From contig CAVSCK010000003.1 of the NCBI GenBank assembly GCA_963726455.1, positions 480,001-544,000 on the forward strand: 64,000 nt of DNA. The letters run 5' to 3'. Each line of letters begins with the position of its first letter. The first letter of the stretch is position 1. The DNA is from an uncultured bacterium. Lineage in GTDB: Bacteria; Zixibacteria; MSB-5A5; CAIYYT01. The position numbers were made by a program, and so were the translations under genes. Below the pieces are notes generated by a model. That model saw only the letters and a program-made list of their open reading frames with translations, ran no database searches and was not told the origin of the DNA. This document shows positions 1 to 21,177 of the stretch, one piece after another.

Positions 1-1064
1 TAGACGAAGCGCAGGTGATACACAACCGAGGTCAGGTCAGTGCCGTCAGGGTATATTCGTTTGAAATGATACTTGTGCCACATCGGGCATTCAGGGGCCT
101 TGTGGACAGTATCTACACGGGCAGGACAATCGATCACAGGGATATTCTCTTTGTCGAAAAAGAATAATTCGACGCGGCGATTAACCTGTGAACGGTAATT
201 GCTCTTCTCGGCATCGTCGATCGGAAATGATTCTCCGCAGGAGAGATATTTCTTCATATCGTCACAATATTTCAGACGAGAGCGATACTCAGAAGTTAAC
301 AATTCGCGACTGACCTGCAGGGCTGCCGCGATGTCGTCGTTATAGATGTCATAGACGGCGAGCCACATTTCCATCGGCCACTTGTGCGCTCCGTCATTCT
401 TGATCTTCGCGTGCGTACCCTCCGGTATCGTGACGCTTTCAGCGGGGGCGAGACCGCTGAGAACCCAATCGTTGTAATGGGAAATGAAGGCCTTGCAGGC
501 ATCGCTGACGTCATTGCTCCATTTGTCATCAAGTTTCACAGGGTCGCAATCGGCCCAGCTTCTGCGGTTCTTTACGTACAAGAGAATCTGCTGATAGTCT
601 TCAATTCGATGCCGCTTCTTGGAGACCTCCGCCCATTTGTCGCGAGTGCCTTCGAGTAGATACATGACATTCTGGGCACGCAGGTCAGACAACTCGAAGT
701 TCATTTTTGCGGCCCCGGAAGTATCGGTATGCCCGGCAATCAGCAGGCGCTTTTCGGGATCGAATTCGAATTGCTTCAGCCCAAGCGCCAGCGCCTGCAA
801 TCCGGAAACCTTGTCCTGGTCTTCCTGCAATTTGGCATCGTCGGGGTCGGTAGCATTTTCCGCGGCGCCGTCACTCGATGATTTTCCCTGCGGGCGTTCG
901 GGCATCATCACGGCGCTGTCAAGATGGAAGAGCACATCCTCCATCTCGAGCATCAGGACTTCGGCCGGATCAAGCTCGAATTCGGGGAACACCGTGGTGT
1001 CGGCGTCCTTGCCCCCAATCATTTCTCGAAAAGTGCAGGGTTTCTTTACGGCAGGTTTGGACAT
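1..1064 (-). CDS. OmpA-like peptidoglycan-binding domain protein with large internal insertion (runs off window start; not in ORF track)
   Basis: Manual translation from ATG at 1064 is open to position 1: MSKPAVKK...VLFHLDSA...LLIAGHTDTSGAAKMNFELSDLRAQNV...SCGESFPID...SQVNRRVELLFF. GHTD, LS.LRA, GES.P and NRRVE are OmpA_C motifs. Starts 8 nt after the PAAR gene stop. Confidence 0.85.
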   Translation of the reverse strand, partial: MSKPAVKKPCTFREMIGGKDADTTVFPEFELDPAEVLMLEMEDVLFHLDSAVMMPERPQGKSSSDGAAENATDPDDAKLQEDQDKVSGLQALALGLKQFEFDPEKRLLIAGHTDTSGAAKMNFELSDLRAQNVMYLLEGTRDKWAEVSKKRHRIEDYQQILLYVKNRRSWADCDPVKLDDKWSNDVSDACKAFISHYNDWVLSGLAPAESVTIPEGTHAKIKNDGAHKWPMEMWLAVYDIYNDDIAAALQVSRELLTSEYRSRLKYCDDMKKYLSCGESFPIDDAEKSNYRSQVNRRVELFFFDKENIPVIDCPARVDTVHKAPECPMWHKYHFKRIYPDGTDLTSVVYHLRFV

Positions 1065-1072
1065 TGTCTCTA

Positions 1073-2149
1073 TCAACTACTTCCGGGAAACTTGTCATCT
1101 CTGACATTGACTGAGATTTTCAGTTTCCCCGGGGCTACATCGGTTACTTTGGCATAGCCACCGCCGTCGAGTTTGCCTTCCTTGACTTCTCCGGACGGCA
1201 AAATCACGCGATATTTCTTGTCGCCGATGGCGTTACCTTCTTTATCCTTGAGCTTGAATTCCAGATCATCCACGTATTCCAGCAGGCCGGAGCGTTGTGT
1301 CAGGGTCGACGTCTTGGCGACAAAGTAGTAGGCCGGCGACGAATAACCACCGCCCTTCAACTTCTTTTCCTGGAGCTTGAGGAAGTCCTGGTCAACGACG
1401 AGTTCCCACTCGCCTTCGATCTTGTCGCCCTTAACGGTAGTTTCTATCTGCTTGAGAACCTGGTCGGGGAAGTTAGTGTCCCGGACGTGCACCTCCAGAA
1501 ATGCCTTTTGCCCTTCGGGAACGCCGGTGGTCTCAGCAGTCATTTGAACCTTCTCCCCTACCTTGGCGGAGTCTTTGGACCACTTGGCGCTGATGATCGC
1601 CCTGATTTCGATGTCGTAATTGCCGGGATCGATGTTGGCTTGCTTGACGCTGCCGGTCAGCGGCGATACACTCTTATTGCTCGATGGCGAGGTCAACTCA
1701 TATTCGGCGCCGGTGATAGGGAATCCGCCATTATCTACAATGGCGACATCCAAAAAATGTCCCTCCGGCTTTTCCATCGCAGCAGTCGCTGCCTCGGCCT
1801 CGGCGCTCTTCTCACCACCTCCGGTTCCGGCTCCTGCACCGGGGCTCATCGCATCCCCAATAAGCACAGTAGGGCAACCCATAGCGATACTGTCGGGCGG
1901 GCCTGCACAAAGCACCGGGTCACCGACTCGCGCGGCAGGCATATTGCCAATCATGACGCTGGCGCTGCCTTTCAGAATCGGGCCACCAACGTGCGGTGGT
2001 GGTGGAACACCCGGATTGAGCAGAGGACAGATATGGTTGTCTCCCATCCGGGCAGCCGGCATACCGCCGATTAGGACCATAGGAAATCCAACCATAATTG
2101 TTCCACCATGAACGGTCGAGTCAAATTGTCTGGCTGCGGGTTGTCCCAT
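1073..2149 (-). CDS. PAAR-repeat protein with C-terminal extension (contractile injection spike-tip type)
   Basis: Three PAAR motifs (PAARQFD, PAARMGD, PAARVGD) with His/Cys metal ligands in the first ~98 aa, a Gly/Ala linker, then ~240 aa of beta-rich sequence. Confidence 0.9.
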   Translation of the reverse strand: MGQPAARQFDSTVHGGTIMVGFPMVLIGGMPAARMGDNHICPLLNPGVPPPPHVGGPILKGSASVMIGNMPAARVGDPVLCAGPPDSIAMGCPTVLIGDAMSPGAGAGTGGGEKSAEAEAATAAMEKPEGHFLDVAIVDNGGFPITGAEYELTSPSSNKSVSPLTGSVKQANIDPGNYDIEIRAIISAKWSKDSAKVGEKVQMTAETTGVPEGQKAFLEVHVRDTNFPDQVLKQIETTVKGDKIEGEWELVVDQDFLKLQEKKLKGGGYSSPAYYFVAKTSTLTQRSGLLEYVDDLEFKLKDKEGNAIGDKKYRVILPSGEVKEGKLDGGGYAKVTDVAPGKLKISVNVRDDKFPGSS

Positions 2150-2331
2150 AAATCAGGCGCTATCTCCCTAATCGGTTTTACGCTGATATAGTCGTGGCTA
2201 CTGCCCTATGGTTCAAGCAAAGAAGCGCTTTCAGTTGACCGACAGAATTTAGCGTAGCAGCAGCGTTCCGTCAACATTCAATTTGAGCTGTACTGGAGGC
2301 ATTGCGCGGAAATCGCTTGATCTGCGCGAGA

Positions 2332-2901
2332 CTAGTTGTGTTCGGAGCTGGCTGTAGCCGCGTTCTTGGTGTTGGAGGATGATTCCTTGAGCGGGAGTCC
2401 ACACACCGGGCAGTACAAGTACTCTTTTTCGACCCATTTGTGGCCGTATTCGCACTGCTTTACCTTATGCTTCTGGTCGATGTAGACGTCGTCCCAGTCG
2501 GCTAGTATGGTGTAGTAGAGAGTGTTGCCCGAAACCCGCAGCGCCAGCGAAATTTCCTCTACCTTACAGATGGTCTCGCCGTCACATTCCAAGTAAATAG
2601 GGATCTTCTGCGTGGAAATCAGTTTCTCGGGACCACCCTTGGCAGGCCGCTCTGATTCACGGGATTCGATTTCGATTGTGGTCTCGCCGGTTCTCCCCAA
2701 AAAGACCAAGCTGCGCAAGGTCGTGACCTTGTCCACCGTCATACCCCATGAGGCAATTGATTGATTCGGTAACGCCGAAGTCGATTGGCCACCCTTGTAG
2801 TAACGGGTAGTCGTGATTTTCATGTCGGCGCGCAAATCTGATGCCAAGGCAAAGGCCAATGCAAGCGATACTATTAGCAGACTTGACGAGATTTTTCTCA
2901 C
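2332..2901 (-). CDS. Hypothetical exported protein with C-terminal zinc-ribbon-like motif
   Basis: N-terminal signal-peptide-like segment; C-terminal CEYGH...CPVCG. Confidence 0.65.
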   Translation of the reverse strand: MRKISSSLLIVSLALAFALASDLRADMKITTTRYYKGGQSTSALPNQSIASWGMTVDKVTTLRSLVFLGRTGETTIEIESRESERPAKGGPEKLISTQKIPIYLECDGETICKVEEISLALRVSGNTLYYTILADWDDVYIDQKHKVKQCEYGHKWVEKEYLYCPVCGLPLKESSSNTKNAATASSEHN

Positions 2902-2996
2902 GCGAATCCTCCGGGAAGCGATGGAAATCGCCCCTGCTGACTATATCGACGCAGACGCACTCAAAACTGAGTGCGGAGTGCACCGGACGGAGGATA

Positions 2997-5045
2997 TTAC
3001 GTCGTTTCAACCCTTTGGCAAAGCAATTTGTGTTCCGTAACCGGGCTAATTCCGACCACAAAACGGTGGACAATTCTGATTTCCGTCTTGCCGCGATAGC
3101 GATCATCCAATCTCCGGACGAATTCCTGGGCTACGCGGTCTCGTTCACCGGGTTGGAGCGAGTGATAAAAGGTCGTGCCGGCGCCGGATTTCATGACATG
3201 GTCATATACTTCCTGTCCGGAGTGTGCCAGGAAATCGAATGTCCCTTCGTTCAGCCAGTCGATGTCAAATCCGAAGTTCCGCAAATGCTCTTCAGTTTCT
3301 TTCGCGTCTAAAGGGAATTTCATCCGAACAGCCTTAGTCAGGATATCGGGCTCTTCTCGCACGATTTCCTCGAACAGTTCCAGTGGGACCTCGGGCGAGC
3401 GATCCAGGTGCGCGACGAAGGCGATAACGCCTCCGGGCTTCAGGATTCTTTTCAGCAGCGGGAAGATTTCCTCGCAGCCGACATAGCCGATAAGCCAGGT
3501 CATGGTGGCAACATCAACCGATTGCGCCGGCAGCTTACGCAATTCCACTAATACGTCACCGATGCGAAATTCGACGTTCCCCAAACCAAGCGTTCCGAGC
3601 CGTTGTCTTGCTTTTTCCACCATACCTTCGGTGAGATCAATGGCGATGACTTTGCCTGATGTCCCGACCATCCCCGCCAGCTTGGCAGTTGAGTATCCGG
3701 TGCCACAACCGCAGTCGACTGCGACCGAACGGGGTTTGATTTGGAGTTTCGCAAACATGTAGTCGATAGGCGCTGATGCTACCGACAACCAATAGTCTTC
3801 GTAGGTCTGGCTGGCGGAATTGTATCCTTTGACAATTTCGGCGTTGCCTGCGAGCTCGGAATTCTGTCCTTCCAGAATTCTGAAGAATCGCGGCGGCTCC
3901 TCCTCGGGAAGCGGCATTGGCGGCACCGTTTCCACACGGGCGGGTCGACAATGTTTGGAGCATTCGGAGAAATATCCACGTAACTGGTGGGCAAGACAGA
4001 TACTGTATGGATGCGTGATGTCGGCCTGCATGCGAGACATGATTACTCCCAAGTCCTCTTCAAGCACATTGCCGTAGGATATCGGCATCATGTTGCAGGG
4101 AGACACCTCTCCGCTGCCGTCAACGTAGATGTGTGAGTGCCCGGCGCCACAACCAAAGAACTCGGGAGACTCCATGTGCGCAAATGACGAGATGGGTGCG
4201 CTCTTCTCCTGTACATTGTATTCGGCCATGAGTTGAAACACGCGGGCGAATTCCAGTTCACCAAAGCCGATATCGCTGTTGATAATCCTACCGGCAGGCG
4301 CAGGTTCGATCAATTGGAGTTCATCGACGCCTAGACTTGTATTCAGCTCCACCAGTTTTCGGAAGTTGTCCCCTTCGAGAAGTCTTCTGGTCGGCACTGC
4401 GCATGTATAAGTGTAGAAGCCGTGCTTCTTCGCAAGCTCGATAGCTTTGAGAGCAATCTTGAACGCACCGAGACGTCCGCGGCGAGTGTCGTGTTCGCCT
4501 TCGTCGGCGGAATCGAGACTGATTGAGACAGAGTAGACGCGAGTTTCGCGCAACCGACACGCCAATTCGTCGTTGAATCCATAACCGGTAGTAGCCAAGA
4601 CGCCGCAGGAGTCTTCGCGTAAGCACGAGACTATTTCCACCAGGTCATTGCGCAAGCATGGTTCGCCGCCCGTGAAGTTGACGACGATTGCTCCCAATTC
4701 CTGCAGGCGCGTAACGACCTTCTGGAGTGCATCGGTTGACAGGTCGGACACGACCCGTCCGGCGTTGTAGCAGTGCCAGCAGTTGAAGATGCAGGCGTTG
4801 GTTAGCGCCAGGTCGACTGATTGTATCGGAGTTCTCTTGTCCGCGCCGAAGTAGGTCGCCATGAAACGGTCGAAGGGTTTGCCGGGAAAAGGCGGAATGA
4901 AGGTGCTGATAACATATTGATTGCCATATTCGCGCACGCGCTCGATTTCCAGAAAATCACGGAGGTACTGGTACAGCGACGGCGTGAAGAGGCGCATATC
5001 AACGCCCTTCATGAACTCATTCAAGAAATGCTCGTTGTTCGTCAT
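2997..5045 (-). CDS. Radical SAM (SPASM/twitch) - class I SAM methyltransferase fusion
   Basis: CxxxCxxC (CIFNCWHC), FTGGEP, twitch-like GCGAG..HIYVDGSGEVSPC, and a C-terminal UbiE-like MTase with DCGCGTG. Confidence 0.92.
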   Translation of the reverse strand: MTNNEHFLNEFMKGVDMRLFTPSLYQYLRDFLEIERVREYGNQYVISTFIPPFPGKPFDRFMATYFGADKRTPIQSVDLALTNACIFNCWHCYNAGRVVSDLSTDALQKVVTRLQELGAIVVNFTGGEPCLRNDLVEIVSCLREDSCGVLATTGYGFNDELACRLRETRVYSVSISLDSADEGEHDTRRGRLGAFKIALKAIELAKKHGFYTYTCAVPTRRLLEGDNFRKLVELNTSLGVDELQLIEPAPAGRIINSDIGFGELEFARVFQLMAEYNVQEKSAPISSFAHMESPEFFGCGAGHSHIYVDGSGEVSPCNMMPISYGNVLEEDLGVIMSRMQADITHPYSICLAHQLRGYFSECSKHCRPARVETVPPMPLPEEEPPRFFRILEGQNSELAGNAEIVKGYNSASQTYEDYWLSVASAPIDYMFAKLQIKPRSVAVDCGCGTGYSTAKLAGMVGTSGKVIAIDLTEGMVEKARQRLGTLGLGNVEFRIGDVLVELRKLPAQSVDVATMTWLIGYVGCEEIFPLLKRILKPGGVIAFVAHLDRSPEVPLELFEEIVREEPDILTKAVRMKFPLDAKETEEHLRNFGFDIDWLNEGTFDFLAHSGQEVYDHVMKSGAGTTFYHSLQPGERDRVAQEFVRRLDDRYRGKTEIRIVHRFVVGISPVTEHKLLCQRVETT

Positions 5046-5052
5046 ATTCTTT

Positions 5053-5319
5053 TCATTCTTTCTGAACCGAATGGTTCTCCAATGGATGTTGCCCGATCAA
5101 CCAAACCCCAGCTTTCAGAACTTGAGCGAGAGAGAGCATTCTGACAAAGATGCGCCGGGCACGGCCAAGGGCGCACAAAATGCAGCCACCTGCGATAGCT
5201 GCCCACGCAAAGAGCGTCGTCGTAAGTATCATCAGGAGACAATCGATCAAGGCGTTACCGATAGCGGTCAATTCCTTCTCGATCAAGTCGCCGCCGAGTT
5301 CAATGATTCCGTAATTCAC
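5053..5319 (-). CDS. Small hydrophobic hypothetical protein within the lipid operon
   Basis: GTG start overlaps the upstream TGA (GTGA at 5316-5319); one hydrophobic stretch; ends 7 nt before the radical SAM start. Confidence 0.5.
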   Translation of the reverse strand: MNYGIIELGGDLIEKELTAIGNALIDCLLMILTTTLFAWAAIAGGCILCALGRARRIFVRMLSLAQVLKAGVWLIGQHPLENHSVQKE

Positions 5320-6215
5320 AGTCTGGCTCCTTCCGGCAGTTTCAGCAGCGGCGTTGAAGATCGCGACCTCACCTCCGCCGTCGCGAAGAAGTAGCTGTCT
5401 TCGATGTGATCCGTGCCGCTGTAGAGAATGTTGGCCTCGCGCATGCTGACGATTTTGATGTCTCCATAGCCAACGCTGGATAGAATGGATTTCATGCGAT
5501 CCGGGCGGCTCGAAAATGTCAACGGCTCGTTAATCGAATTGCAGAGTTCGATCAATTGACGATTGCCCTGATAGTCGGTCTCATTGTCGGTTAGTTCCGG
5601 CGGAACGAAGTCGAAGGTGATGCGATTATTCGGGCCCAGTTCGGCAAGACGGCCAAGAGTCTCGGCCACGATATTCTCATTCAGGAAGAGTGTGACGCCT
5701 TCCCAGATAGAAAGCGTGCGCTTGTGCCTTGCGAATCCGGCGGCTAGGAGCTTGTCGTTAACAGAGTCCTTCGAGAAATCGGTGGCGACATACGTCACAT
5801 TAGCCGGCAGCCGGCCAAACAGGCGGCGGGTGAGCGCTTTCTTTATTTGCTGTGTCGATTCCAGATCTAGTTCAAAGACCTGGGCACGGCGAAATTCCGG
5901 CATGCGGAAGTAGCGGCTGTCGTACCCGGCTCCGAGAAGAACGATCTGCTCGAAACCTTCGTTGAGGCAGTCGCGGGCGAAGTCGTCCATAAAGCGCGCC
6001 CGCAGAACAATGGCTTTGCGAACGGAAGGGTTAATCACTTGCATCATGCCGACCATCTTCATCCCTTCCTGACCGGCGTAGTACGGCGCGAGTGGATCGG
6101 CGATTACGCGTTTCTCTGCGGGCAACGAACACTCAAACGCCTTCGCTCCCGCCGACCAGCGCGCAAAGAGAAACCCGCATGGTTTCTCAACTGTTTTGCT
6201 GTATACCTGCTGCAT
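5316..6215 (-). CDS. SAM-dependent methyltransferase, LCM/TIGR00027-type (carboxyl O-methyltransferase-like)
   Basis: DPLA..., RARFMDD, QIVLLGAGYDSR, VFELD and WEGVTLFL motifs; start moved to ATG 6215 (MQQVY) behind a GGAGAGAGG RBS. Confidence 0.88.
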   Translation of the reverse strand: MQQVYSKTVEKPCGFLFARWSAGAKAFECSLPAEKRVIADPLAPYYAGQEGMKMVGMMQVINPSVRKAIVLRARFMDDFARDCLNEGFEQIVLLGAGYDSRYFRMPEFRRAQVFELDLESTQQIKKALTRRLFGRLPANVTYVATDFSKDSVNDKLLAAGFARHKRTLSIWEGVTLFLNENIVAETLGRLAELGPNNRITFDFVPPELTDNETDYQGNRQLIELCNSINEPLTFSSRPDRMKSILSSVGYGDIKIVSMREANILYSGTDHIEDSYFFATAEVRSRSSTPLLKLPEGARL

Positions 6216-6234
6216 GGCTTGTACCTCTCTCCCT

Positions 6235-6948
6235 TTAGTATTTCCTGTCAAAGACCGGTTTGAGTACGCCGATGCCAAGGAGCACCGGGTTGACAAATAG
6301 CTGCACGCAGATAGCGAGCAGCAACACCCAGTAGATGATGGCTGGCGCCTGATCGAGCATGACGAACACCGGTATGAAGAAGATCGTCGTCAGGTAATTG
6401 ATGATGCTCTTGTAACCCGGTTTCCAGTGCGTGGTGACGAGGCAATTGATGGGGTAGTGCACGGGCGAAACGGTGAGCACGATCAGAGTGGCTACGTAAA
6501 TCGTCGGATATATCGGCGGCAACTGCAGGAAGTAGAAAGCGAAGACGGAGAAGAACACCGGCGGTGCACCGACAGAATAGCCGTTTGCCAGAAAGCTTTC
6601 TTTGCGCGAATACTTCGAGGATGCCGCCATCGCAGCGCCAACCACCAACCAGACTCCGACGCCCTCAACGAACAGGCCGGTCTTCCAGAACAACATCATC
6701 GGCACGAAAGTCAGTCCGACGAGATCAGTGATAATATCCAGTACTTCGCCGGAGGTACCCGGAAATTTGTCTTTGATTTTGAACTTGCGCGCAAGAGTGC
6801 CATCGAGACGGTCGACTAACAGGACCAACAGACTAAAACGCGCCGCAGCGTCGTAGCTGCCATCAAGCACCGCCATCATGGCCAGCGCGGCAAAGCCAAG
6901 TCCAACCAAGGTCAGGATATGCGGTCCGTAATAGAGATACTTCTTCAT
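6235..6948 (-). CDS. CDP-alcohol phosphatidyltransferase family (Pcs/PssA-like)
   Basis: D(R)LDGTLARK...GEVLDIITD signature; multiple TM helices; SPVHYP resembles the phosphatidylcholine synthase C-terminus. Confidence 0.88.
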   Translation of the reverse strand: MKKYLYYGPHILTLVGLGFAALAMMAVLDGSYDAAARFSLLVLLVDRLDGTLARKFKIKDKFPGTSGEVLDIITDLVGLTFVPMMLFWKTGLFVEGVGVWLVVGAAMAASSKYSRKESFLANGYSVGAPPVFFSVFAFYFLQLPPIYPTIYVATLIVLTVSPVHYPINCLVTTHWKPGYKSIINYLTTIFFIPVFVMLDQAPAIIYWVLLLAICVQLFVNPVLLGIGVLKPVFDRKY

Positions 6949-6961
6949 GACGACTTTCCTT

Positions 6962-7702
6962 TCATATTCCCATCAAGCGCCCCAGCCAGTAGGCCACCGG
7001 GGCGGAGACGATCAGACTGTCGAAGCGGTCAAAGATTCCACCATGACCCGGCAAAAGTCCGGAGAAATCTTTGATTCCAAGTTTGCGTTTTATCAGTGAG
7101 AAGAGCAGGTCACCGACCGTGGCGGCAGAGGCGATGGCGAAACCCATGATAGCGGCTTGGGTCTCAGTCAGGTTGGAGATTTGGGGCGCCATCGCCAAGG
7201 CGCCGACCACAGCTGTCCCCGCTCCGCATAACATTCCTTCCCAGGTTTTTCCGGGGCTTAGTCGGGGGCAAAGTTTATGGGTGCCGAGCAATCGGCCCCA
7301 GAGTTGTGCAAAACTGTCTGTCATCGAGACAAGCAGGAAGACGAGAGCGAAATCAGGGAACCATTGATCGCTGGTTCCAATCAACAGATGGGAAAGCAAG
7401 ACTACCACGAGAGCACCAAATAGAATACTCGCCGTGGTTGCGATGAAAGTTCGGCGGTTTAGTACGCGGATCATCTCGATGGTGCCTATCACTGCAATGG
7501 TCAGGAGCACGGCGGCCAGTAAACCGCGCCCGATCCATGCGAAAGTGAGAACACCGACGATGATCGCCGCATAAACGCAATATTTTGTCCAGTCCTCACA
7601 GCGACGAAATCCCGTCACCGATTGAATTCGGTGCGTCAGTGTCATCAGGGAGGCGCCGACGGCGAACAAGCCGGTGACCATGAAGACAAGAGCGGTGTTC
7701 AT
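6962..7702 (-). CDS. Phosphatidate cytidylyltransferase family (CdsA-like)
   Basis: DSFAQLWG...KLCPRLSPGKTWEG and GDLLFSLIKRKLGIKDFSGLLPGHGGIFDRFDS signatures. Confidence 0.92.
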   Translation of the reverse strand: MNTALVFMVTGLFAVGASLMTLTHRIQSVTGFRRCEDWTKYCVYAAIIVGVLTFAWIGRGLLAAVLLTIAVIGTIEMIRVLNRRTFIATTASILFGALVVVLLSHLLIGTSDQWFPDFALVFLLVSMTDSFAQLWGRLLGTHKLCPRLSPGKTWEGMLCGAGTAVVGALAMAPQISNLTETQAAIMGFAIASAATVGDLLFSLIKRKLGIKDFSGLLPGHGGIFDRFDSLIVSAPVAYWLGRLMGI

Positions 7703-8631
7703 TGTGCCCTCCCGAAGGACGCCGGCACAATCAGATTGACGGCCGAGGGGAGGACGCGAAATTCGAATGCATAACCGCGCTCATGAACTTGACCGTCCCC
7801 GAATAGCAGCATGGGTTCGGATGACCGGATACTTAAGGATGATTCGCGCAGGCGAACGACGTTTCCGGAGCAGTTATTGGCACCGGTGACTGTAGATAAC
7901 ACAGATTGCAGCAGTGAGTGACGATCATGGTTGTCGGTAATGGCGAACAGGTCGAGGTGGCCATCGCAATTGGAGGCCGCGGGCGCGACTTGGAATCTGC
8001 CTCCCAGAAACGGCTGGTTGGCGATGATGACCGAATATGCTTCGCCTTTCCAATCAGATTGATTCCCGTGAAGAGTCAAAGGAATCCCACGACGGGTACT
8101 GCGGCGATAGATAAGCGCCAAGGCCAACAGATAGAGCTTACTGCCAAATACGCGAGCTACCAGTTCTCCGGCTACGCCGGCTTTCCGGATTGATTCGGCT
8201 TCCTCGACAGCACAACACGGCAGGCCGAATCCGGCGACAGTGAGAAAACACCAGCCGTTGACGCTAATGGCGTCGACGCGCCGAATGTGGCGCCTTCCTA
8301 TCACTTGACACGCAGATCGCAGGTCGGTCGGAATATCATGATAGTTTGCCAGGTCATTCGCGGTGCCGGTCGGGATCAAGCCGACTGCGACGTCATGCCC
8401 GATGCAGCCGTTAACTACTTCGTTGATCGTACCGTCACCGCCGACCGCGACAATGGTGTCGCAGGCGTGCATACAAGCATCACGAGCCAACTCTGTTGCG
8501 TGGCCCGGAAAATCAGTCCAGGTGATGGCTCGCTGCTCAAGTGCGAGTAACTGGCGAAGCCGTTCGGTGAAACGCCGGGGTCGCCCTTTGCACGTCCGTG
8601 GATTTATGATGACCTGAGTTTGCATATTCAT
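7699..8631 (-). CDS. Diacylglycerol/lipid kinase family (YegS/DgkB-like)
   Basis: IINP, AVGGDGTINEVVNG, IPTGTANDLA and N.PFLGG...AP.AS..DG.LD motifs. Confidence 0.92.
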   Translation of the reverse strand: MNMQTQVIINPRTCKGRPRRFTERLRQLLALEQRAITWTDFPGHATELARDACMHACDTIVAVGGDGTINEVVNGCIGHDVAVGLIPTGTANDLANYHDIPTDLRSACQVIGRRHIRRVDAISVNGWCFLTVAGFGLPCCAVEEAESIRKAGVAGELVARVFGSKLYLLALALIYRRSTRRGIPLTLHGNQSDWKGEAYSVIIANQPFLGGRFQVAPAASNCDGHLDLFAITDNHDRHSLLQSVLSTVTGANNCSGNVVRLRESSLSIRSSEPMLLFGDGQVHERGYAFEFRVLPSAVNLIVPASFGRAQ

Positions 8632-8646
8632 TCTCTCGCGGCGTTG

Positions 8647-9768
8647 TCAGGCAGCGTGCGGCACTGCCTTTCCCCAATCGACGGCGAAGCAGTAGTCAAG
8701 CAAGGTGTCGAAGTAGCTCGAAAACTGCGGCAGACTGATTCCACTTCCACTTAGCGCCTCAAGCGTGTTGGCATCGTCGAAGCGGCGGACGACTTTCAGA
8801 TAGGGTTCAAACACGGACATCAATTGCAGAGTGCGAGAGTTGGGAGGTTGGATGTTGTCTTGAGCGTTACCGAAAGCCGGAAGATGAAGCTTATCCGCAG
8901 TTGCGTGTTTCCGCAAATAGCCCAGGAAATGGCCGACGATGTTGCCGACTGCGGGAGCGCCATCGGCCCCTGAGACGAGGTGATATATCTTGCCATTCGA
9001 GTCCGTATGCAAGAATATGTGGGTAATTGCCCGAGCGACATATTCGAGCGGGACTACGTCAAGCGGAGTGGCGGGATTGCAGGTTAAAGACTTAAGAACT
9101 CCCCGATAGATCAGCCGCAGCGGCGAATAGAGCACGTTGAAAGACAATGTCCGGCCTGTCTGCGAATCACCGACTACAATGCTGGGACGGAAGATCGTGA
9201 TCGGCAGTTCTGGCATCAGCGAACGAACATGTTGCTCGGCCTCAAACTTGGTGGCTTCGTAGCTATTGGAAAAGCGGCAGGGCTGTGCCGGTTCATCTTC
9301 ATAGATGTGACCCTCACGATCGCCGCAGACATAAGCAGTACTGATATGCGCAACTTTTTCCAGCCGACCAATCCTGGACGCCTGCTGTGCGAGTTCCATG
9401 ACGTTGCGGGTACCGAAACAGTTGATCTGGCGGGCACATTCCAAAGGCAAAGTGAATTGAACGGCTGCCGCTGAGTGGATAATGTGCGTGACAGTCGAGG
9501 CGAGATCCTGCCAATCGGCGTCGGACAACCCAAGCATTGGCTGAGCGATATCACCACAGACAACCCGGACACGATCTTCGAATTGGGCCAAGTCGAGTTC
9601 CCGGTCGAGAACCTGGACGGCCTGTTGCAGCCGTTCTTTCGCGGCCGATTTCGAACTTCCTCTGACAAGCGCAACGATTTCGGTCTCTGGCTCGTTGGCC
9701 AGAATCGTCAGAAGAATCTTTCCACCGATGTTCCCGGTGGCGCCGGTTATTAGTATCTTTGCTGACAT
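8647..9768 (-). CDS. Extended SDR, fatty acyl-CoA/thioester reductase (male-sterility, NAD_binding_4 type)
   Basis: ILITGATGNIG, GDIAQPMLGL, IIHSAAAVQF, HISTAYV, NSYEATKFEAE (YxxxK) and RPSIVVG. Confidence 0.88.
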   Translation of the reverse strand: MSAKILITGATGNIGGKILLTILANEPETEIVALVRGSSKSAAKERLQQAVQVLDRELDLAQFEDRVRVVCGDIAQPMLGLSDADWQDLASTVTHIIHSAAAVQFTLPLECARQINCFGTRNVMELAQQASRIGRLEKVAHISTAYVCGDREGHIYEDEPAQPCRFSNSYEATKFEAEQHVRSLMPELPITIFRPSIVVGDSQTGRTLSFNVLYSPLRLIYRGVLKSLTCNPATPLDVVPLEYVARAITHIFLHTDSNGKIYHLVSGADGAPAVGNIVGHFLGYLRKHATADKLHLPAFGNAQDNIQPPNSRTLQLMSVFEPYLKVVRRFDDANTLEALSGSGISLPQFSSYFDTLLDYCFAVDWGKAVPHAA

Positions 9769-9815
9769 TGTCCTACCTCGTGAATCGCTACTGGTTTCAT
9801 AACGACCAGCGTTAA

Positions 9816-9831
9816 AGCAATCCCAATGCCA
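9816..9831 (-). promoter_or_regulatory. sigma54 (-24/-12) promoter of the lipid operon
   Basis: Minus strand reads TGGCAT-TGGGA-TTGCT, matching TGGCAC-N5-TTGCW, 48 nt upstream of the 9768 start. Confidence 0.75.
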
Positions 9832-9920
9832 GCCAACGCTGAATGACTAGTTCATGCTGTGAGCCAAAGAGATAGCCCGTTCTTGAGGTCACCGCTTCTG
9901 ACATAATGTGAGCCGCCGTG

Positions 9921-9937
9921 GGGTATCATATATCCAG
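9921..9937 (-). promoter_or_regulatory. Candidate upstream activator (enhancer) site CTGG-N8-TACCC
   Basis: Minus strand CTGGATATATGATACCC, about 90 bp upstream of the -24 box; same motif occurs twice at 19550-19598. Confidence 0.4.
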
Positions 9938-10188
9938 CCGAAGAACTTCGGTAACCATCTGATCACCGGCAAATGCCGAAAAGACAGGCATTTTCAAACT
10001 TGTATTGCGGCGGGCTCTGCTCTATCTTCAGAGCGACATCAATTCGACAATCAAGGTGACGGGATGGCGATTGCGTACGGGAAAGTCCCTTGGTAACAGC
10101 TAATTTGGGGTGTGACAAAGTTCTTAGGAAAAGGTGTTACGACTTGGCGTCAAGTTGTCTCTGAAATCACGCTCAGCGGAGGTACCGA

Positions 10189-12012
10189 ATGAAATTGCCA
10201 TCGATACAGCAGGTCTGGCTTGAGGCCGGTCGAACGGCAAAAAGATTCCCATTGGTGCTAATCGCGACCACGATTGGAACGATTGCCGCTCTAATTTTGG
10301 TCGATCACGATTATTCCAAGGAAGGCACCTTTTTGAATGGAGTTCTACTCGCATCAGCCCTCGGTGCGATGTTATTGACCGGCGCGGTGCTGGTAGGAGA
10401 AAAGGGCCGACGCGGCAAACTCATTTTCTGGGCGATGCAAATCCTAAGTATCCTGCTGCTGGTCGGATATGCTTTCACAATCCCATTGAAACTTGTTGGA
10501 GCGCCACTTTTTCACGTTGTGCAGTTTCAGCTCTTCTGTTTTGCGCTGGCGCTGCTGGTGTCTGTCGGGCCGTTCCGCTCACCCGGTGAATTGAATGGAT
10601 TCTGGCAATATAACAAGACACTGGTCTTCAGAATTCTAACGTCACTACTTTTCGCGGGTGTCCTGTATGCCGGCCTTGCCATAGCGCTGGCGGCGCTGGA
10701 CCATCTGTTCGGCGTTGATATAGCCGGGAAGCGGTACTTCGAACTGTGGGTATTGATTGCAGGTATATTTGCTCCCTGGTTCTTTCTCGCCGGAGTACCC
10801 GAGGATCTGGATGCTTTAGAAAGCGTCAGTGAGTACTCCAAGGGTATAAAGGTATTCGCGCAATATATCCTCTCCCCGATCGCCCTGGTCTATTTCGTTA
10901 TTCTCTATGCCTACATCGTGAAGATTCTGCTCGAATGGAACTGGCCCAAGGGTTGGGTTGCAGAACTAATCCTTGGCTTCGCCGCTGTCGGTCTGTCGAC
11001 GTTAGTGCTGCTGTATCCGGTTCGCGAGCGGCCGGAGAACAAGTGGATCAGAGTTGCAACGCGCTGGTTCTTCCGGCTGATGATCCCGTTGATAGTTGTC
11101 TTGATCCTTGCGGTCTGGCGTCGAATCACGGATTACGGAGTTACGGAAGAAAGATATTTCGGTATTGCACTGGCCGTTTGGCTCGCAGTGGTGGTGGTGT
11201 ATTTCCTGGTCAGTAAAGCGAAGAGTATTAAGATTCTGCCCGGGTCAATGTGTATTCTGCTGCTGGTAACGAGCGTCGGGCCGTGGGGTGCCTTTTCCGT
11301 TTCCGAGAACAGCCAGATTGGGAAGCTGCGTATGTTGCTCGAAAGAAACGCCATGCTTGTCAACGAGAAAATCGAAAAGGCGCCCGCGACATTGCCTTCC
11401 GGCGACAAGGAACAGATTTGGTCAATTGTGCATTACCTCAACGGGATGCACGGCCTGGAAGATATTCGTCCCTGGTTCGAGGAAAAGATTGTGCCTGACT
11501 CCACCGGCATCCGTCCCAAGAAATTGTCGACGTCCATCGCGTTCGATCTGATGGGAGTCGAGTATGCCGGAGTCTGGCGAAGTGCCGCTTCGGACCAATT
11601 CATTTTCAATTCCGGATCAGACAACGCGGTGGACGTTGCCGGATTTGACCACTGGATGCCAAGGCAACAATTCGGGTCCAGTCCTGCAAAACCTGCCTCT
11701 CAGGGAAGCGAATTACTTTGGAGGACGAATACCGAACTTGACACGATCATGTTCTTTCTGCGCAAGGATAGCGTCAGTATAGATTCTATAGAGATATCGA
11801 TTCAGCCGCTTATGACAAGCTTGCTGAGCCAGTACGGCAACGCGAATGTCGAGGATGTCCCGCCTGACCAGATGTCAGTCGGCGCCGCAAGTCAAACAAT
11901 GCGCGTCAAGATGTTCGTGAATTCATTTTCCTTTAGAAGAGATGGTGACAAATTGATACCGATCTGGTATTCGGCCAACATCTTCTATTCGGTGGGCAGC
12001 CGGACGGAATGA
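10189..12012 (+). CDS. DUF4153-type integral membrane protein
   Basis: Many TM helices; RFP, WQYN, Y.KGIKVFAQYILSP, ILYAY..KI...WPKG and RRITDYGVTEERY motifs; GGAGG RBS. Confidence 0.8.
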   Translation: MKLPSIQQVWLEAGRTAKRFPLVLIATTIGTIAALILVDHDYSKEGTFLNGVLLASALGAMLLTGAVLVGEKGRRGKLIFWAMQILSILLLVGYAFTIPLKLVGAPLFHVVQFQLFCFALALLVSVGPFRSPGELNGFWQYNKTLVFRILTSLLFAGVLYAGLAIALAALDHLFGVDIAGKRYFELWVLIAGIFAPWFFLAGVPEDLDALESVSEYSKGIKVFAQYILSPIALVYFVILYAYIVKILLEWNWPKGWVAELILGFAAVGLSTLVLLYPVRERPENKWIRVATRWFFRLMIPLIVVLILAVWRRITDYGVTEERYFGIALAVWLAVVVVYFLVSKAKSIKILPGSMCILLLVTSVGPWGAFSVSENSQIGKLRMLLERNAMLVNEKIEKAPATLPSGDKEQIWSIVHYLNGMHGLEDIRPWFEEKIVPDSTGIRPKKLSTSIAFDLMGVEYAGVWRSAASDQFIFNSGSDNAVDVAGFDHWMPRQQFGSSPAKPASQGSELLWRTNTELDTIMFFLRKDSVSIDSIEISIQPLMTSLLSQYGNANVEDVPPDQMSVGAASQTMRVKMFVNSFSFRRDGDKLIPIWYSANIFYSVGSRTE

Positions 12013-12042: not shown

Positions 12043-14652
12043 ATGCAAGAGGATAATGACAATAAGCAATCCGTAGGCACTCTTTCACCGGGAAGCGACG
12101 TCGGTCATTACCAGGTCATAGACATGATCGGCAAAGGTGGCATGGGAGAAATCTACCTTGCTGACGACCGGCAACTACAACGACAGGTGGTGCTGAAGTT
12201 CCTGCCGGCTCATCTCGCCGTCGACAATGATTGTCGGACGCGCTTCCGGCAGGAAGCACAGGCAGCCGCCAAGCTGAACCACCCTAATATCGTTACCATC
12301 TACGAAGTCGGCGAATACGGAAGTCGGCCGTTTATCGCGATGGAGTATATTCACGGCCGCACTCTGCGTGATATCCTGCTTGAGGGACCAATGGCGCCTG
12401 TGCGTGCCGCCGAAATCATTTGCCAAACGTGTCAGGGATTGCAAGCGGCACATGAAGCCGGAACTGTCCACCGGGATATCAAACCCGCAAACATAATGCT
12501 CGATGACAAAGGCCGAGTGCGTCTGCTTGATTTCGGTCTGGCGAAAGCGTTGTGCTCCGAGCTCCCCAGTCAATCGCAGGCAACCGCCGGTACCGTGAAC
12601 TATCTCGCACCCGAAGTTTTGACTGGCGGAGCAATTACGCCGGCGTCCGACTTGTTTTCGCTCGGTGTGGTGCTGTACCAAATGCTGGCAGGACAACTGC
12701 CCTTTACCGGCGATTATGAAGCTGCCGTCCTTTATGCGATTGTCAACGAAGTGCCGCGAGACGTCCGAGACATAAATCCGCGCATTCCGGAACGCCTCGC
12801 CGCTATAGTCGACCGGCTTCTACAGAAGGATCCGCTCAAGCGATTTCAGTCCGCTCAAGAAGTTAGAGAAGCGTTGAGTTGCCGGTCGGAAGAAACGCAG
12901 AAGGAGATTCCAGTTCAGGTAAAAAGATCGGTTCGTAATCGACTCGTATATTACACCACCGTCACGGTGCTCATAGTGGTCACGAGTATTAGTGTCTGGA
13001 ATTACGCCAATAAGCCACCTGCCGGCGCAACAAGTAAGAAAGTGCTCGCAGTCCTGCCATTTGATAATCTGGGTTCTGCTGACGATGACTATTTTGCAAA
13101 TGGCATGACCGACGCTGTGGCCGCCAATCTGGCGAACTCTGGTGAAATAGCCGTGATTCAACGCGCCGGCACCATGTCATATCGGAAGAGTGTCAAGACT
13201 TCGCAGCAAATCGGGACAGAGCTGGGAGCAAAGTACCTTCTTACCGGAACGATTCAGTGGGACAAGGCAGTCGTGCCCGGCCAAATTCGCATTACCGCCG
13301 GCCTGATCAACGTTGAGCGTGGCAATTATCTCTGGCGACAACAATACGACCGCTCCATTGACCGAGTGTTCTTAGTACAGTCTGATATAGCCAATCAGGT
13401 CACTCGTTCCTTGAAGATCGAAGTACGGAGTGAGGCATCGTCAAGTGTAGCCGCTCAACCCACTGAGAACCTCGAGGCATACGACTATTACCTGAGGGGT
13501 AACGACTACTTCAACCGCAGTTGGGAGTTGAATGACATACGAAGCGCGATCCAGATGTATCAGCGTGCCGTCGAACTTGATTCAACGTTCGCGCTTGCCT
13601 ATGCAATGCTGTCCCGAGGCCACTCCAGTATGTACTGGGAATACTTCGATCATTCCGATCAGCGCCGCGCCACAGCGGAAGAAGCCGTCGCCCGAGCGTT
13701 GACACTTCAGCCCCAACTGGCAGAGGCACACCTGGCCAAAGGATACGTCTCTTATCACTGCTACCTGGATTACAGCGCCGCGCTGCGTGAATTCGACCTG
13801 GCCCTCAAAGGACAGCCGAATAACGCCGACCTCTACAACGCCATCGCGGCGGTGCAGCGTCGACAGGGGTTGCTGCAACAGGCATCGCAGAATTTTGCCA
13901 AGGCGTTGGAGCTGGATCCGCGTTCGCCGTTGCGCGCCTTTGACGTCGGGCTGACATTCGGCATGATGCGCCAATTTACTTCGGCGGACGAGTATCTTGA
14001 TCGCGCCATTTCGCTGGCCCCGGACTGGCCGCTGGCGTACATCTATAAGGCCTGGCTGGCAATATTCGAAAATGGAGACACCGCCCAAGCAGACCAGGTG
14101 CTGGCATCTGCCTCCGGCAAGGCAGATTTGTCGCGCTCGAAATATTATTGGTGGCTGCTGAGAATAATCGAACCGAATACTGAGAGACAACTGACTGAAG
14201 TCAACCTGGGGAGTGATACGGCGGCCTACTATCTTCAAGTCGCCGAAATCAATCGCTTGCTAGGGCAACGTCAGGCCGAAGCTGTCTTTGCTGATTCTGC
14301 CCGGCGGCTGCTCGAACCGCAACTCAAGTATTTCCCCGAAGACGCGCGCGTACACAGCTACCTTGGGCTGGCATACGCCGGCCTTCGACAGAAGGGCAAG
14401 GCGCTGATGCATGGTGGTAAGGCGGTCGAGCTTATCCCGACAACGCGTGAGGCCTTTGACGCGCCTTTCTGGATAATGAATCTTGCCGAATCAGAGGTAA
14501 TCTTCGGCGAAAACGATTCCGCTGTCAAGCACCTGGGAATACTGCTGTCAATTCCCGGCTTTGCGACCAGCACTTACTTGAAGCTGGACCCAATCTGGAA
14601 GCCCCTGCGAGGTAATCCCGGTTTTCAGCAACTGATACAGCCGATCTCATAA
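12043..14652 (+). CDS. Ser/Thr protein kinase with TM, TolB-like domain and TPR repeats
   Basis: GKGGMGEIY, HRDIKPANI, DFGLAK and YLAPE; one TM; LAVLPFDNLG TolB-N-like motif; EAYDYYLRG followed by TPRs. Confidence 0.93.
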   Translation: MQEDNDNKQSVGTLSPGSDVGHYQVIDMIGKGGMGEIYLADDRQLQRQVVLKFLPAHLAVDNDCRTRFRQEAQAAAKLNHPNIVTIYEVGEYGSRPFIAMEYIHGRTLRDILLEGPMAPVRAAEIICQTCQGLQAAHEAGTVHRDIKPANIMLDDKGRVRLLDFGLAKALCSELPSQSQATAGTVNYLAPEVLTGGAITPASDLFSLGVVLYQMLAGQLPFTGDYEAAVLYAIVNEVPRDVRDINPRIPERLAAIVDRLLQKDPLKRFQSAQEVREALSCRSEETQKEIPVQVKRSVRNRLVYYTTVTVLIVVTSISVWNYANKPPAGATSKKVLAVLPFDNLGSADDDYFANGMTDAVAANLANSGEIAVIQRAGTMSYRKSVKTSQQIGTELGAKYLLTGTIQWDKAVVPGQIRITAGLINVERGNYLWRQQYDRSIDRVFLVQSDIANQVTRSLKIEVRSEASSSVAAQPTENLEAYDYYLRGNDYFNRSWELNDIRSAIQMYQRAVELDSTFALAYAMLSRGHSSMYWEYFDHSDQRRATAEEAVARALTLQPQLAEAHLAKGYVSYHCYLDYSAALREFDLALKGQPNNADLYNAIAAVQRRQGLLQQASQNFAKALELDPRSPLRAFDVGLTFGMMRQFTSADEYLDRAISLAPDWPLAYIYKAWLAIFENGDTAQADQVLASASGKADLSRSKYYWWLLRIIEPNTERQLTEVNLGSDTAAYYLQVAEINRLLGQRQAEAVFADSARRLLEPQLKYFPEDARVHSYLGLAYAGLRQKGKALMHGGKAVELIPTTREAFDAPFWIMNLAESEVIFGENDSAVKHLGILLSIPGFATSTYLKLDPIWKPLRGNPGFQQLIQPIS

Positions 14653-19678: not shown

Positions 19679-19694
19679 TGGCATCGTGGTTGCT
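19679..19694 (+). promoter_or_regulatory. sigma54 (-24/-12) promoter
   Basis: TGGCAT-CGTGG-TTGCT upstream of the 19786 gene and divergent from the sigma54 activator. Confidence 0.8.
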
Positions 19695-19785: not shown

Positions 19786-21177
19786 ATGAGAGGAATCTCA
19801 CTACTTGCAATCGGCCTGACATTGATTGGGCTGTTGCTTGCGGGCTGCGAGAAAAACTACAATCCCGTGGCCGCTCCCGAGACGGACTCGCCCGTTGCGT
19901 TGGCGCCGCCAATTGAAATTCGCGAACTGGAAGCCAACAGCGTTGCGGATGCGGTCCGAGTTGCTCCGACGCCGATGGTGACGGTATCGGTCGGCGAGAG
20001 CATGCTGGAATTCTGGCCCTATACCGGTACCAACTTTGCCGGAACGCCCCAGGACCCCATCAATTTGATCTTTTACGGCAATGCCGATCCACGCGACATT
20101 CGTGCAGCGTTGCTGTCTCTGAATGGCGATCGCACGGCGCTTGGTTTCCCACCGGCGCCACCGTTCAATTCGACATGGGACGACGCCATTGGCGACGTGC
20201 AAACTGCATACGGTGGTATGCTCGGAGATGGTCCTTCGATGTCAACCAGCCCCGACGATCACGAGACGCCGGACAGGTCCTGCCATGACCGGGACTGGAC
20301 TGGAAGCACGATCCAACTGGCTTGCGGACCGTACGAAGGCATGCGCTTTCACTTGCGGCTGTTCAAGCTCGGTTGCTGGACGGTAGCAAACGCGCACCTT
20401 GACGTTCTGATTCCGGGGACGACCGATCATCAGGTCGTCAGTTGGGAAGTGGCAGAACAGTTTGTCATTGCCGATTTCATGCGCAGTGGGCTGCTCGATG
20501 AAACCACACCGATGATCCCGACGGGTCAGATCAACGATTCGCCGTTCAGAACCATTCCGGCGATCATTTACAACGGATTCCCGCCTGAACTTCGCGCCTT
20601 GATCGGTGGACCGATGTCCGATGTCACTGAGGACGTTCCTATCGGCACGGACGGACGCGCGGTTATTCTGAACCTCGCCCAAAAGGCCGAGCGCGTTGCG
20701 GAAGTGCGGACGCAGGACTTTGTCATCAACTTCAACCAGGCAATTCCCAAGCCCTTCTGCTCAAACGGGCCTACCGATTACGTGTTTGTTACCGGGCCCG
20801 TGCATTTGGTTCAGACCGCTCGCCTGACGCGTGCCGGAGTGTACGAAGTTGGCTTCTCCGCCACCGGGACCCTGAATGCCGTGCCGATTGATCCGACTAC
20901 CGGCCAACCGACTGGCGCGGCCATGCAGGCGTATGTTCGCGAAACCCATTCCGGGTTGATGAACAAGAATTTCTGTTCGGCAACAAGCAGCAAGTACCAG
21001 AAGCTAGGCCAAACTGATGATCCGAATGGCGGCCGCAGCTTCACGCATCTTATGGTCAATTCCTCCGGATTGAACAAATTTTCCGAAGACACCCGTTGCG
21101 GATCAGATCGATTCGACAATAGTGACGAGCGTTTCGCAAGATCAACCACTCCCGACCTGGCGCCTGATGAGCAATAG
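19786..21177 (+). CDS. Hypothetical lipoprotein, possibly with an LssY C-terminal-like domain
   Basis: Lipobox LLAGC; DPINLIFYG ... RFHLRLF ... AHLD ... HQV motifs reminiscent of LssY_C; GAGG RBS. Confidence 0.75.
   Translation: MRGISLLAIGLTLIGLLLAGCEKNYNPVAAPETDSPVALAPPIEIRELEANSVADAVRVAPTPMVTVSVGESMLEFWPYTGTNFAGTPQDPINLIFYGNADPRDIRAALLSLNGDRTALGFPPAPPFNSTWDDAIGDVQTAYGGMLGDGPSMSTSPDDHETPDRSCHDRDWTGSTIQLACGPYEGMRFHLRLFKLGCWTVANAHLDVLIPGTTDHQVVSWEVAEQFVIADFMRSGLLDETTPMIPTGQINDSPFRTIPAIIYNGFPPELRALIGGPMSDVTEDVPIGTDGRAVILNLAQKAERVAEVRTQDFVINFNQAIPKPFCSNGPTDYVFVTGPVHLVQTARLTRAGVYEVGFSATGTLNAVPIDPTTGQPTGAAMQAYVRETHSGLMNKNFCSATSSKYQKLGQTDDPNGGRSFTHLMVNSSGLNKFSEDTRCGSDRFDNSDERFARSTTPDLAPDEQ

Follow-up and report, generated by a model that had tools for sequence, protein, structure and literature searches.

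Does a tight row of genes in DNA from an uncultured Zixibacteria bacterium encode a lipid pathway of its own and, if so, which lipid would it make? The stretch analysed here (64,000 nucleotides (nt) of contig CAVSCK010000003.1, hereafter the window) carries seven co-directional minus-strand open reading frames (ORFs) at positions 2997-9831, as placed by a sequence-only reading that took all seven for a sigma-54-controlled pathway to an unknown modified lipid. The unit that emerges from comparison with related genomes is smaller. Judged by gene order, the conserved unit is five genes, encoding a short-chain dehydrogenase/reductase (SDR), a YegS-type kinase, a CdsA-like enzyme, a Pcs-like transferase and an LCM methyltransferase, and these very probably make up a dedicated, sigma-54-controlled lipid pathway that depends on cytidine diphosphate (CDP). 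The ORF coordinates leave overlaps or gaps of -4 to +19 nt between neighbouring operon genes, and profile scans with Pfam and NCBIfam-type models confirmed the families first assigned to the operon genes. The operon is laid out as follows, in the order of transcription (aa, amino acids).

9817-9831, minus strand: sigma-54 type -24/-12 element, TGGCAT-N5-TTGC, one mismatch to consensus.
8647-9768, minus strand: stand-alone thioester-reductase-type SDR, 373 aa (PF07993, NAD_binding_4).
7699-8631, minus strand: soluble lipid kinase of the YegS/BmrU/DgkB family, 310 aa (DAGK_cat and YegS_C).
6962-7702, minus strand: CdsA-like CTP:lipid-phosphate cytidylyltransferase, 246 aa (PF01148, CTP_transf_1).
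6235-6948, minus strand: Pcs-like CDP-alcohol phosphotransferase (hereafter the transferase), 237 aa (PF01066).
5316-6215, minus strand: S-adenosylmethionine (SAM)-dependent methyltransferase of the LCM/TIGR00027 family (PF04072, TIGR00027), 299 aa from the ATG at 6215.
5053-5319, minus strand: small ORF, 88 aa, no family match.
2997-5045, minus strand: radical SAM/class I methyltransferase fusion, 682 aa (Radical_SAM at residues 81-212, methyltransferase at 440-547).

The transferase is present in 22 of 285 phylum genomes (16 of 130 genera) and SDR orthologs in 28 of the 285; counts over related genomes are not independent. The cluster is conserved: 12 of the 15 loci taken from phylum genomes show the order SDR-kinase-CdsA-transferase-LCM, and so do 14 loci from metagenomes. 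The three partial loci (L and G numbers denote loci and genomes) comprise one that is masked where the SDR is expected (L066), one that stops at a contig end (L070) and one that looks degraded (L074). The last, at G176:C1:872000-891999 in a genome that is 72% complete, has a partial SDR match and residues 1-107 only of the transferase, with no LCM gene found, and looks like a decaying copy of the cassette. Identity to the window proteins is 60-84% for transferase and LCM orthologs, and 30-64% for those of the SDR, kinase and CdsA-like enzyme. Further relatives of the transferase with LCM adjoining form a second class of loci (type B), and distant high-GC contigs (L105, L109, L112, L113) hold the same families in other orders. 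These include CDPOH-LCM-LipK-CdsA and SDR-CDPOH-LCM (CDPOH, the CDP-alcohol phosphotransferase; LipK, the lipid kinase), rearrangements that undo the earlier idea of a gene order simply mirroring the steps of the pathway.

The operon is also separate from housekeeping phospholipid synthesis, a point on which the earlier proposal stood up: the search for a second cdsA in the window's genome found one in the classical position after uppS, and the same genome holds six other PF01066 genes.

What could the front end of the cassette do? The SDR scores 212.5 bits against PF07993 and 165.6 bits against TIGR01746 (below the 213.35 cut-off), and its translation shows GxxGxxG and YxxxK motifs. Among solved structures it is most like the MxaA R domain (4u7w, 117.7 bits, aligned over SDR residues 4-350), carboxylic acid reductase and fatty acyl-CoA reductase, the last (61 bits; PDB 7eoz) being more distant than the MxaA domain. 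The enzyme would accordingly be classed with alcohol- or aldehyde-forming thioester reductases, and we infer that it turns an acyl thioester into a fatty alcohol. The kinase scores above the cut-offs of both DAGK_cat (98 bits) and YegS_C (53 bits) and just below that of TIGR00147 (116.9 bits; cut-off 118.65), shows a GGDG motif, and has YegS and DgkB as solved relatives; it is a putative lipid-alcohol kinase. In every locus that links the two genes the kinase lies directly 3' of the SDR, even where the CdsA and transferase genes are lacking. In G074 a UbiA-family transferase gene comes next after the SDR-kinase pair, and upstream lie the lipoprotein, activator and kinase genes also found beside the cassette; in G168 and G169 it is followed by a UbiA-family transferase, a dikinase resembling phosphoenolpyruvate (PEP) synthase and rifampicin phosphotransferase, and a GNAT gene; in G216 a dikinase lies downstream of it; and in G174 it is convergent with a row of dikinase, GNAT, Psd, DUF3419, MacB and ABC genes. 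G185 carries the full cassette and then, in the same direction, a UbiA-like gene whose best matches are models of digeranylgeranylglyceryl phosphate (DGGGP) synthase, a second lipid kinase and a ThiL-like monophosphate kinase. UbiA-family genes stand after the pair or the cassette at L062:11363-14867, L135:10255-11697 and L137:10913-15660, where their companions are a ThiL-like kinase or an 883-aa PEP-synthase/rifampicin-phosphotransferase-like dikinase. To judge by gene content, these loci seem to lead from an alcohol via its phosphate and diphosphate to alkyl transfer. The known substrates of UbiA enzymes are lipid mono- or diphosphates, with phosphatidate not among them, and the substrate of the kinase is therefore more likely to be a simple lipid alcohol supplied by the SDR.

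The remaining three enzymes would activate and transfer the lipid. The CdsA-like protein scores 154 bits against PF01148 and 95.9 bits against the PRK11624 equivalog (cut-off 385). It is 40% identical to the genome's uppS-linked CdsA over its C-terminal 122 residues only, a stretch that includes KRxxxxKDxxxxxPGHGGxxDRxD, and the N-terminal membrane half is unrelated; likewise, TmCdsA (4q2e) matches residues 101-243 only. Since the likeness to housekeeping CdsA is confined to the catalytic C-terminal part, the comparison is in keeping with a shared nucleotidyl-transfer chemistry that acts here on another lipid phosphate. The transferase passes PF01066 (37.4 bits; cut-off 22), and its top NCBIfam matches are Pcs models, at 79.0, 70.6, 49.8, 47.3 and 45.9 bits against cut-offs of 300-440 (the equivalogs scored include NF045885 and NF045888, and the two best matches have cut-offs of 400). 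Its motif D-x2-D-G-x2-A-R...G-x3-D-x3-D is intact, and D46, D49, G50, A53, R54, G67, D71 and D75 are invariant across 12 orthologs. With 141 proteins at E<=1e-10 among 5.77 billion, the family is a small one; its source names suggest Zixibacteria/GN15, and its automatic labels alternate between phosphatidylcholine synthase and phosphatidylserine synthase. No solved relative was found at E<=0.01, and no fused form among proteins of 416-2000 aa, which is weak evidence. The LCM protein passes both PF04072 (136.6 bits; cut-off 22.3) and TIGR00027 (156.4 bits; cut-off 93.55), and its gene lies directly 3' of the transferase in type A and type B loci. Its ORF extends to a TTG at 6296 (5316-6296, 326 aa); the ATG at 6215 is the more likely start, since alignment to orthologs from beyond the genus begins at residue 28 of the longer ORF.

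How is the cassette controlled? The operon promoter element (TGGCATTGGGATTGC, 9817-9831, minus strand) is one base off TGGCAC-N5-TTGC, and 49 nt separate its end from the SDR ATG at 9768. The strict sigma-54 pattern has five matches on both strands of the 64-kb window, two of which precede the operon and the apparently co-regulated lipoprotein gene at 19786. The regulatory genes and the second element are as follows.

12043-14652, plus strand: Ser/Thr protein kinase with TPR repeats, divergent neighbour of the operon (Pkinase, 185 bits).
17890-19470, minus strand: GAF-domain sigma-54 enhancer-binding protein (Sigma54_activat, 216 bits; GAF and HTH_8, no receiver domain).
19679-19693, plus strand: second sigma-54-type element, one mismatch, divergent from the GAF activator.
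19786-21177, plus strand: lipoprotein gene, 463 aa (lipobox LLAGC in the translation; no Pfam family at E<=1).

Upstream of orthologous SDR genes the strict pattern occurs in 8 of 16 regions, always at -53 to -67, where about 0.03 would be expected by chance, and GG-N10-GC variants were seen by eye at the same position in four more (L061, L063, L064, L073). Among the remaining regions L066 is masked and three have no element directly 5' of the SDR; in two of these three, L005 and L072, a sigma-54 match precedes a small gene located 5' of the SDR. Clustering of neighbourhood proteins (n=16, the window and the 15 fetched loci) placed a GAF-AAA+-HTH_8 sigma-54 activator in 11 of 16 neighbourhoods and the TPR Ser/Thr kinase likewise in 11 of 16, the window counted in both, with a histidine kinase and an NtrC-type activator as a minority alternative (L005, L072, L081). 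The window's genome has rpoN, on contig C5. With an element conserved in position, an activator gene at hand and the sigma factor in the genome, the sigma-54 control that had been read from the window's sequence is well supported by comparison across loci. The lipoprotein is found in 9 of the 16 neighbourhoods, with a sigma-54-like element upstream in 6 of the 9; in the window that element, at 19679, sits 107 nt 5' of the gene. Its own sigma-54-type element and its conserved place next to the cassette make the lipoprotein a probable member of the same regulon; its only matches in the ESM Atlas were unnamed clusters (0.90-0.91). Inverted repeats of at least 10 nt that could serve as activator sites were not found in 9770-10190, and sigma-70-like promoters and terminators across 2000-10300 showed no excess over the shuffled expectation. 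A search for sequencing runs turned up one DNA run and none of RNA. In the scheme that we propose, the cassette would be transcribed from the sigma-54 promoter with the adjacent GAF-type enhancer-binding protein as its probable driver, and the neighbouring Ser/Thr kinase would probably act upstream of that protein.

Which lipid, then, would such a pathway make? We favour, tentatively and somewhat short of calling it probable, a route from fatty alcohol through alkyl phosphate and CDP-alkanol to an alkylphospho head group that is then methylated. The SDR would reduce a fatty acyl thioester, carried on acyl carrier protein (ACP) or coenzyme A (CoA), to a long-chain alcohol, and the YegS-type kinase would phosphorylate it. 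The CdsA-like enzyme would attach CMP and so yield a lipid alcohol activated by CDP, with this 'CDP-alkanol' taking the place of CDP-diacylglycerol, and from it the Pcs-like transferase would move the alkyl phosphate onto a small hydroxylated head group, probably carboxylate-bearing and serine-like. Finally, the LCM-family enzyme would methylate the head group, most likely as a methyl ester. The product would be a glycerol-free, or at least non-canonical, phospholipid of reduced negative charge, made on demand. Across loci the downstream activation module would vary, using CTP here and a second phosphoryl transfer elsewhere, with transfer afterwards. The fatty-alcohol route is favoured because the SDR-kinase pair stays constant while the genes that follow it vary, as in the UbiA-type loci.

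Several points weigh against this route. We know of no characterised DAGK_cat kinase that uses plain fatty alcohols, the solved bacterial relatives of the window's kinase being YegS and DgkB, nor of any CdsA that accepts alkyl phosphates, and the term 'CDP-alkanol' is absent from the full-text literature searched, whose coverage did not extend to subscription journals. The SDR is closest to R domains that depend on a carrier protein, and the operon encodes no carrier protein. In two cases the SDR is not beside the rest: L113 has the order CDPOH-LCM-LipK-CdsA with no SDR within 9 kb, and G170 carries its SDR about 646 kb away from the cassette. Membership in the LCM family does not by itself settle which group accepts the methyl. 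All of the support is comparative and comes from uncultured genomes.

The strongest competing explanation keeps diacylglycerol as the lipid. A DgkB-like kinase would feed a private pool of CDP-diacylglycerol, the Pcs-like transferase would condense this with an unusual alcohol made or modified by the SDR, and the LCM enzyme would methylate the head group. The product would be a diacyl phospholipid whose head group is new and which may serve as a donor lipid, its diacylglycerol then being recycled. Much about the individual enzymes suits this account: among characterised enzymes, those closest to the kinase use diacylglycerol or phosphatidylglycerol, the catalytic region of the CdsA-like enzyme is 40% identical to that of the housekeeping enzyme, Pcs, to which the transferase comes nearest, works with CDP-diacylglycerol and a free alcohol, and type B loci join the kinase with CdsA with no SDR nearby. 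However, the diacylglycerol account leaves unexplained why SDR and kinase are adjacent and why the pair persists with UbiA-type modules, which do not use phosphatidate. It also gives no reason for a second CdsA with an unrelated N-terminal half, and the substrates of such thioester reductases are long acyl or carrier-bound ones. We regard it as possible but rather doubtful.

For the head group of the fatty-alcohol route, hints come from distant relatives of the transferase (47-53% identity, on contigs of 61-74% GC). In type C loci DUF3419 replaces LCM, and a MacB/ABC exporter, a LysA-like pyridoxal phosphate (PLP)-dependent decarboxylase and a FemAB/GNAT-like protein are added; in type C2 loci (L100, L103, L114-L116, L118) a CarS-like enzyme replaces CdsA. 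Psd is also among the enzymes beside the same transferase family in sister clusters; like DUF3419 and the LysA-like decarboxylase, it belongs to enzymes that handle carboxylate or aminocarboxypropyl groups. One sister cluster was observed on metagenome contigs of 66-74% GC (L101, L102, L104, L106, L107, L108) and comprises the SDR, DUF3419, the transferase, a MacB permease, an ABC ATPase, the LysA-like decarboxylase, the FemAB/GNAT-like protein and CdsA; this cluster may serve to produce a lipid decorated with an aminopropyl group or an amino acid and to export it. LCM-family enzymes methylate carboxylates, and the member TYW4 methylates the carboxylate of an aminocarboxypropyl group. Carboxylate methylation by LCM enzymes and the decarboxylases of the sister clusters together suggest a head group akin to an amino acid, with its carboxylate either masked or taken away. 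An alkylphospho-serine-like methyl ester is the product that we propose, its head group being a guess. The fullest version of the idea, in which glycerol-free alkylphospho-(amino acid methyl ester) lipids arise via CDP-alkanol and the SDR-kinase pair is a plug-in front end for CdsA/Pcs-like or UbiA-type modules, strikes us as a long shot worth stating, possible but on balance improbable.

How far does the cassette resemble systems already described? Pcs, which joins CDP-diacylglycerol and choline, belongs to the same PF01066 family, provides the best curated matches and falls in the same size class (about 237 aa). The window's transferase has an intact DxxDGxxAR...GxxxDxxxD motif with a spacer of 12 residues, a length that would be typical of Pcs. 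However, scores of 79 and 71 bits against cut-offs of 400 do not make it an equivalog, and unlike Pcs it is encoded together with its own reductase, kinase, cytidylyltransferase and LCM methyltransferase. Recycling of diacylglycerol by DgkB/YegS and CdsA uses the same two families in the same order, kinase and then CTP activation; it differs from the cassette, in which the second CdsA copy is operon-specific and unlike housekeeping CdsA in its N-terminal half, a thioester reductase precedes the linked kinase, and the kinase of sister loci feeds UbiA-type enzymes.

Another parallel in logic is the salvage and activation of alcohols for isoprenoid and archaeal lipids, where an alcohol kinase is followed by a second phosphorylation or by CTP activation through CarS, and then by a UbiA-type or CDP-alcohol transferase. 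As in that scheme, a free lipid alcohol would be phosphorylated, activated and transferred, and sister loci have a CarS-like enzyme in place of CdsA, or UbiA-like enzymes with ThiL-like or dikinase-like partners. The difference is that the alcohol would here come from reduction of a fatty acyl thioester, and that no enzyme for a glycerol-phosphate backbone is encoded. The reductase domain of the myxobacterial ether-lipid enzyme ElbD and the fatty acyl-CoA reductases are also of the NAD_binding_4 type and provide lipid alcohols or aldehydes for non-ester lipids; unlike ElbD, the window's SDR stands alone, with no ligase, carrier or acyltransferase domains. DUF3419 is the domain of betaine lipid synthase (BtaA-like; BtaA/BTA1), and sister clusters place it directly beside the same transferase family, whereas the window has LCM in its place and no DUF3419, and a BtaB-type N-methyltransferase was not seen.

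No equivalog model was passed by any of the operon's enzymes, all of which fall in broad families only (Pfam models and the TIGR00027 subfamily). The gene combination is not described in the full-text literature searched, and neither 'fatty alcohol kinase' nor 'long-chain alcohol kinase' occurs in the papers listed by the search for them. The impression that the combination matches no described pathway therefore holds within that coverage. The cassette would be a new form of CDP-alcohol-dependent lipid head-group synthesis in which all enzymes come from known superfamilies; if the fatty-alcohol route were confirmed, it would be close to a new kind of lipid pathway. It would then introduce the CDP-alkanol as a new activated lipid intermediate and give three textbook enzyme families a new class of substrate. 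On the fullest version of the idea, the SDR-kinase pair would be the first bacterial route from fatty acid through fatty alcohol to alkyl phosphate, and the UbiA branch a new way to ether or alkyl-phosphate lipids, with a kinase/sigma-54 circuit switching on the whole. To our knowledge, the membrane lipids of uncultured phyla are largely uncharted and the source of many ether and alkyl lipids in sediments is not known. The cassette is compact, five genes with all motifs intact, and makes directly testable predictions. Beyond it, the recurrence of the hub transferase beside genes for BtaA-like proteins, decarboxylases and exporters suggests that head-group pathways of this kind form a broader family that has yet to be described.

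There remain the two ORFs that the conserved unit leaves out. The radical SAM/methyltransferase fusion passes PF04055 (66.3 bits) and falls below the SPASM cut-off (20.7 against 21.5 bits). C85, C89 and C92 (CX3CX2C) are invariant in 25 sequences, as are C299, C317 and C350, the only three conserved cysteines downstream. SPASM domains have about seven cysteines for two auxiliary clusters, and the pattern here looks more like a one-cluster 'twitch' domain. In the predicted model (predicted local distance difference test, pLDDT, 87.4), the fold of the radical-SAM half is nearest to maturases of peptides that are made by the ribosome and then modified post-translationally (RiPPs), namely SkfB, SuiB, CteB and PqqE, and the C-terminal half resembles whole small-molecule methyltransferases (Tam, JHAMT, BioC).

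Is the fusion a step of the pathway? The sequence-only reading gave it a radical modification, which would be a late one on the alkyl chain or the head group, and the window itself invites this: the fusion starts 270 nt after LCM, with no sigma-54-like or notable sigma-70-like site in the interval, and its methyltransferase part resembles carboxyl O-methyltransferases of lipid-like acids (JHAMT, BioC). The fusion also lies no more than 10 kb from the cassette in G000, G003, G039, G235 and L075, and in G001 it shares a short contig with cassette genes. It occurs in 10 of the 285 phylum genomes, six of them with the transferase (G000, G001, G003, G039, G075, G235), where about 0.8 would be expected from 22/285 and 10/285 if these related genomes were independent, which they are not. 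Yet the fusion is missing from 16 of the 22 cassette genomes, and the transferase from 4 of the 10 fusion genomes (G074, G143, G209, G216). In G075 the two are 1.7 Mb apart, and two loci of the same genus (L070, L078) have the cassette and the downstream genes with the fusion absent. Homologs of 35-40% identity in Planctomycetota, Verrucomicrobiota and others stand in unrelated contexts. On this distribution the fusion is a facultative neighbour, not a conserved step, and its membership in a seven-ORF pathway, as first proposed, is unlikely; in the window it would be co-transcribed with the cassette as an optional companion. Its co-occurrence with the cassette beyond chance, and the sigma-54-like elements before it or its neighbour in some relatives, make it a probable member of the same kind of regulon.

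An equally unlikely alternative, in our estimate, is that the fusion modifies a peptide or protein and shares only its regulation with the cassette. Candidate targets are secreted proteins of about 190 aa with a signal peptide, glycine-rich hydrophobic segments, an invariant-looking PGxGHxYA motif and a C-terminal Phe, whose genes stand in tandem between LCM and the fusion at L071:9157-11114 and L075:10833-13707, and also at L070:5621-8888 and L078:9298-11469. The RiPP-maturase folds agree with such a target, as do the relatives, in which one to five tandem paralogs of the ~190-aa family precede the fusion and an Omp85-like gene often follows. Other recurrent neighbours of the closer homologs are a histidine kinase/sigma-54 activator pair and an endonuclease/exonuclease/phosphatase-family gene. 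A sigma-54-like element precedes the fusion itself in L005 (beside such a pair) and L012 (no such pair nearby), and in L009 it precedes a ~190-aa gene standing before the fusion. Against a protein target, no member of the ~190-aa family was detected in the window's genome with the query used and no close Omp85-like ortholog was found there, although the fusion is intact, and the ~190-aa proteins, with their signal peptide and C-terminal Phe, resemble small outer-membrane proteins rather than leader-core precursors. ArsL/ArsM of arsinothricin synthesis likewise pair a radical SAM enzyme with an ArsM-like methyltransferase (the fusion scores 57 bits against NF008823); in contrast to these and to the RiPP maturases, the fusion has a fused Tam/JHAMT/BioC-like methyltransferase and only three extra conserved cysteines. 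An ArsL/ArsM-like function was rejected, since the 682-aa sequence lacks the RCCLKC tail that defines the ArsL subfamily (10.1101/2024.02.01.577332).

The 88-aa ORF, proposed earlier as a small membrane component of the pathway, finds no match in DNA or protein at the corresponding position, not even among loci of the same genus, and is probably not a gene. Same-genus loci carry three to five tandem genes of the ~190-aa family at its position; descent of the ORF from that family as a remnant was considered and rejected, no similarity being found at the DNA or protein level.

Other features of the window lie around the operon. Just 3' of the fusion (3-2901, minus strand) are genes for a secreted protein of 189 aa, whose C-terminus has a zinc-ribbon-like CxxC pair, for a PAAR-domain protein of 358 aa and for an OmpA-like protein; the 189-aa and PAAR-domain genes are syntenic in same-genus loci with or without the fusion. 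Further along, a gene of CoA-transferase family III is split between ORF 23203-23892 (profile positions 1-212) and the overlapping ORF 23855-24397 (213-366), both on the plus strand, and the split at 23203-24397 is due to a frameshift or to an error in sequencing. A DUF4153 membrane protein (10189-12012, plus strand), encoded between the SDR promoter and the Ser/Thr kinase gene, is unique to the window among the 16 neighbourhoods, and its gene looks like an insertion into a conserved divergent arrangement.

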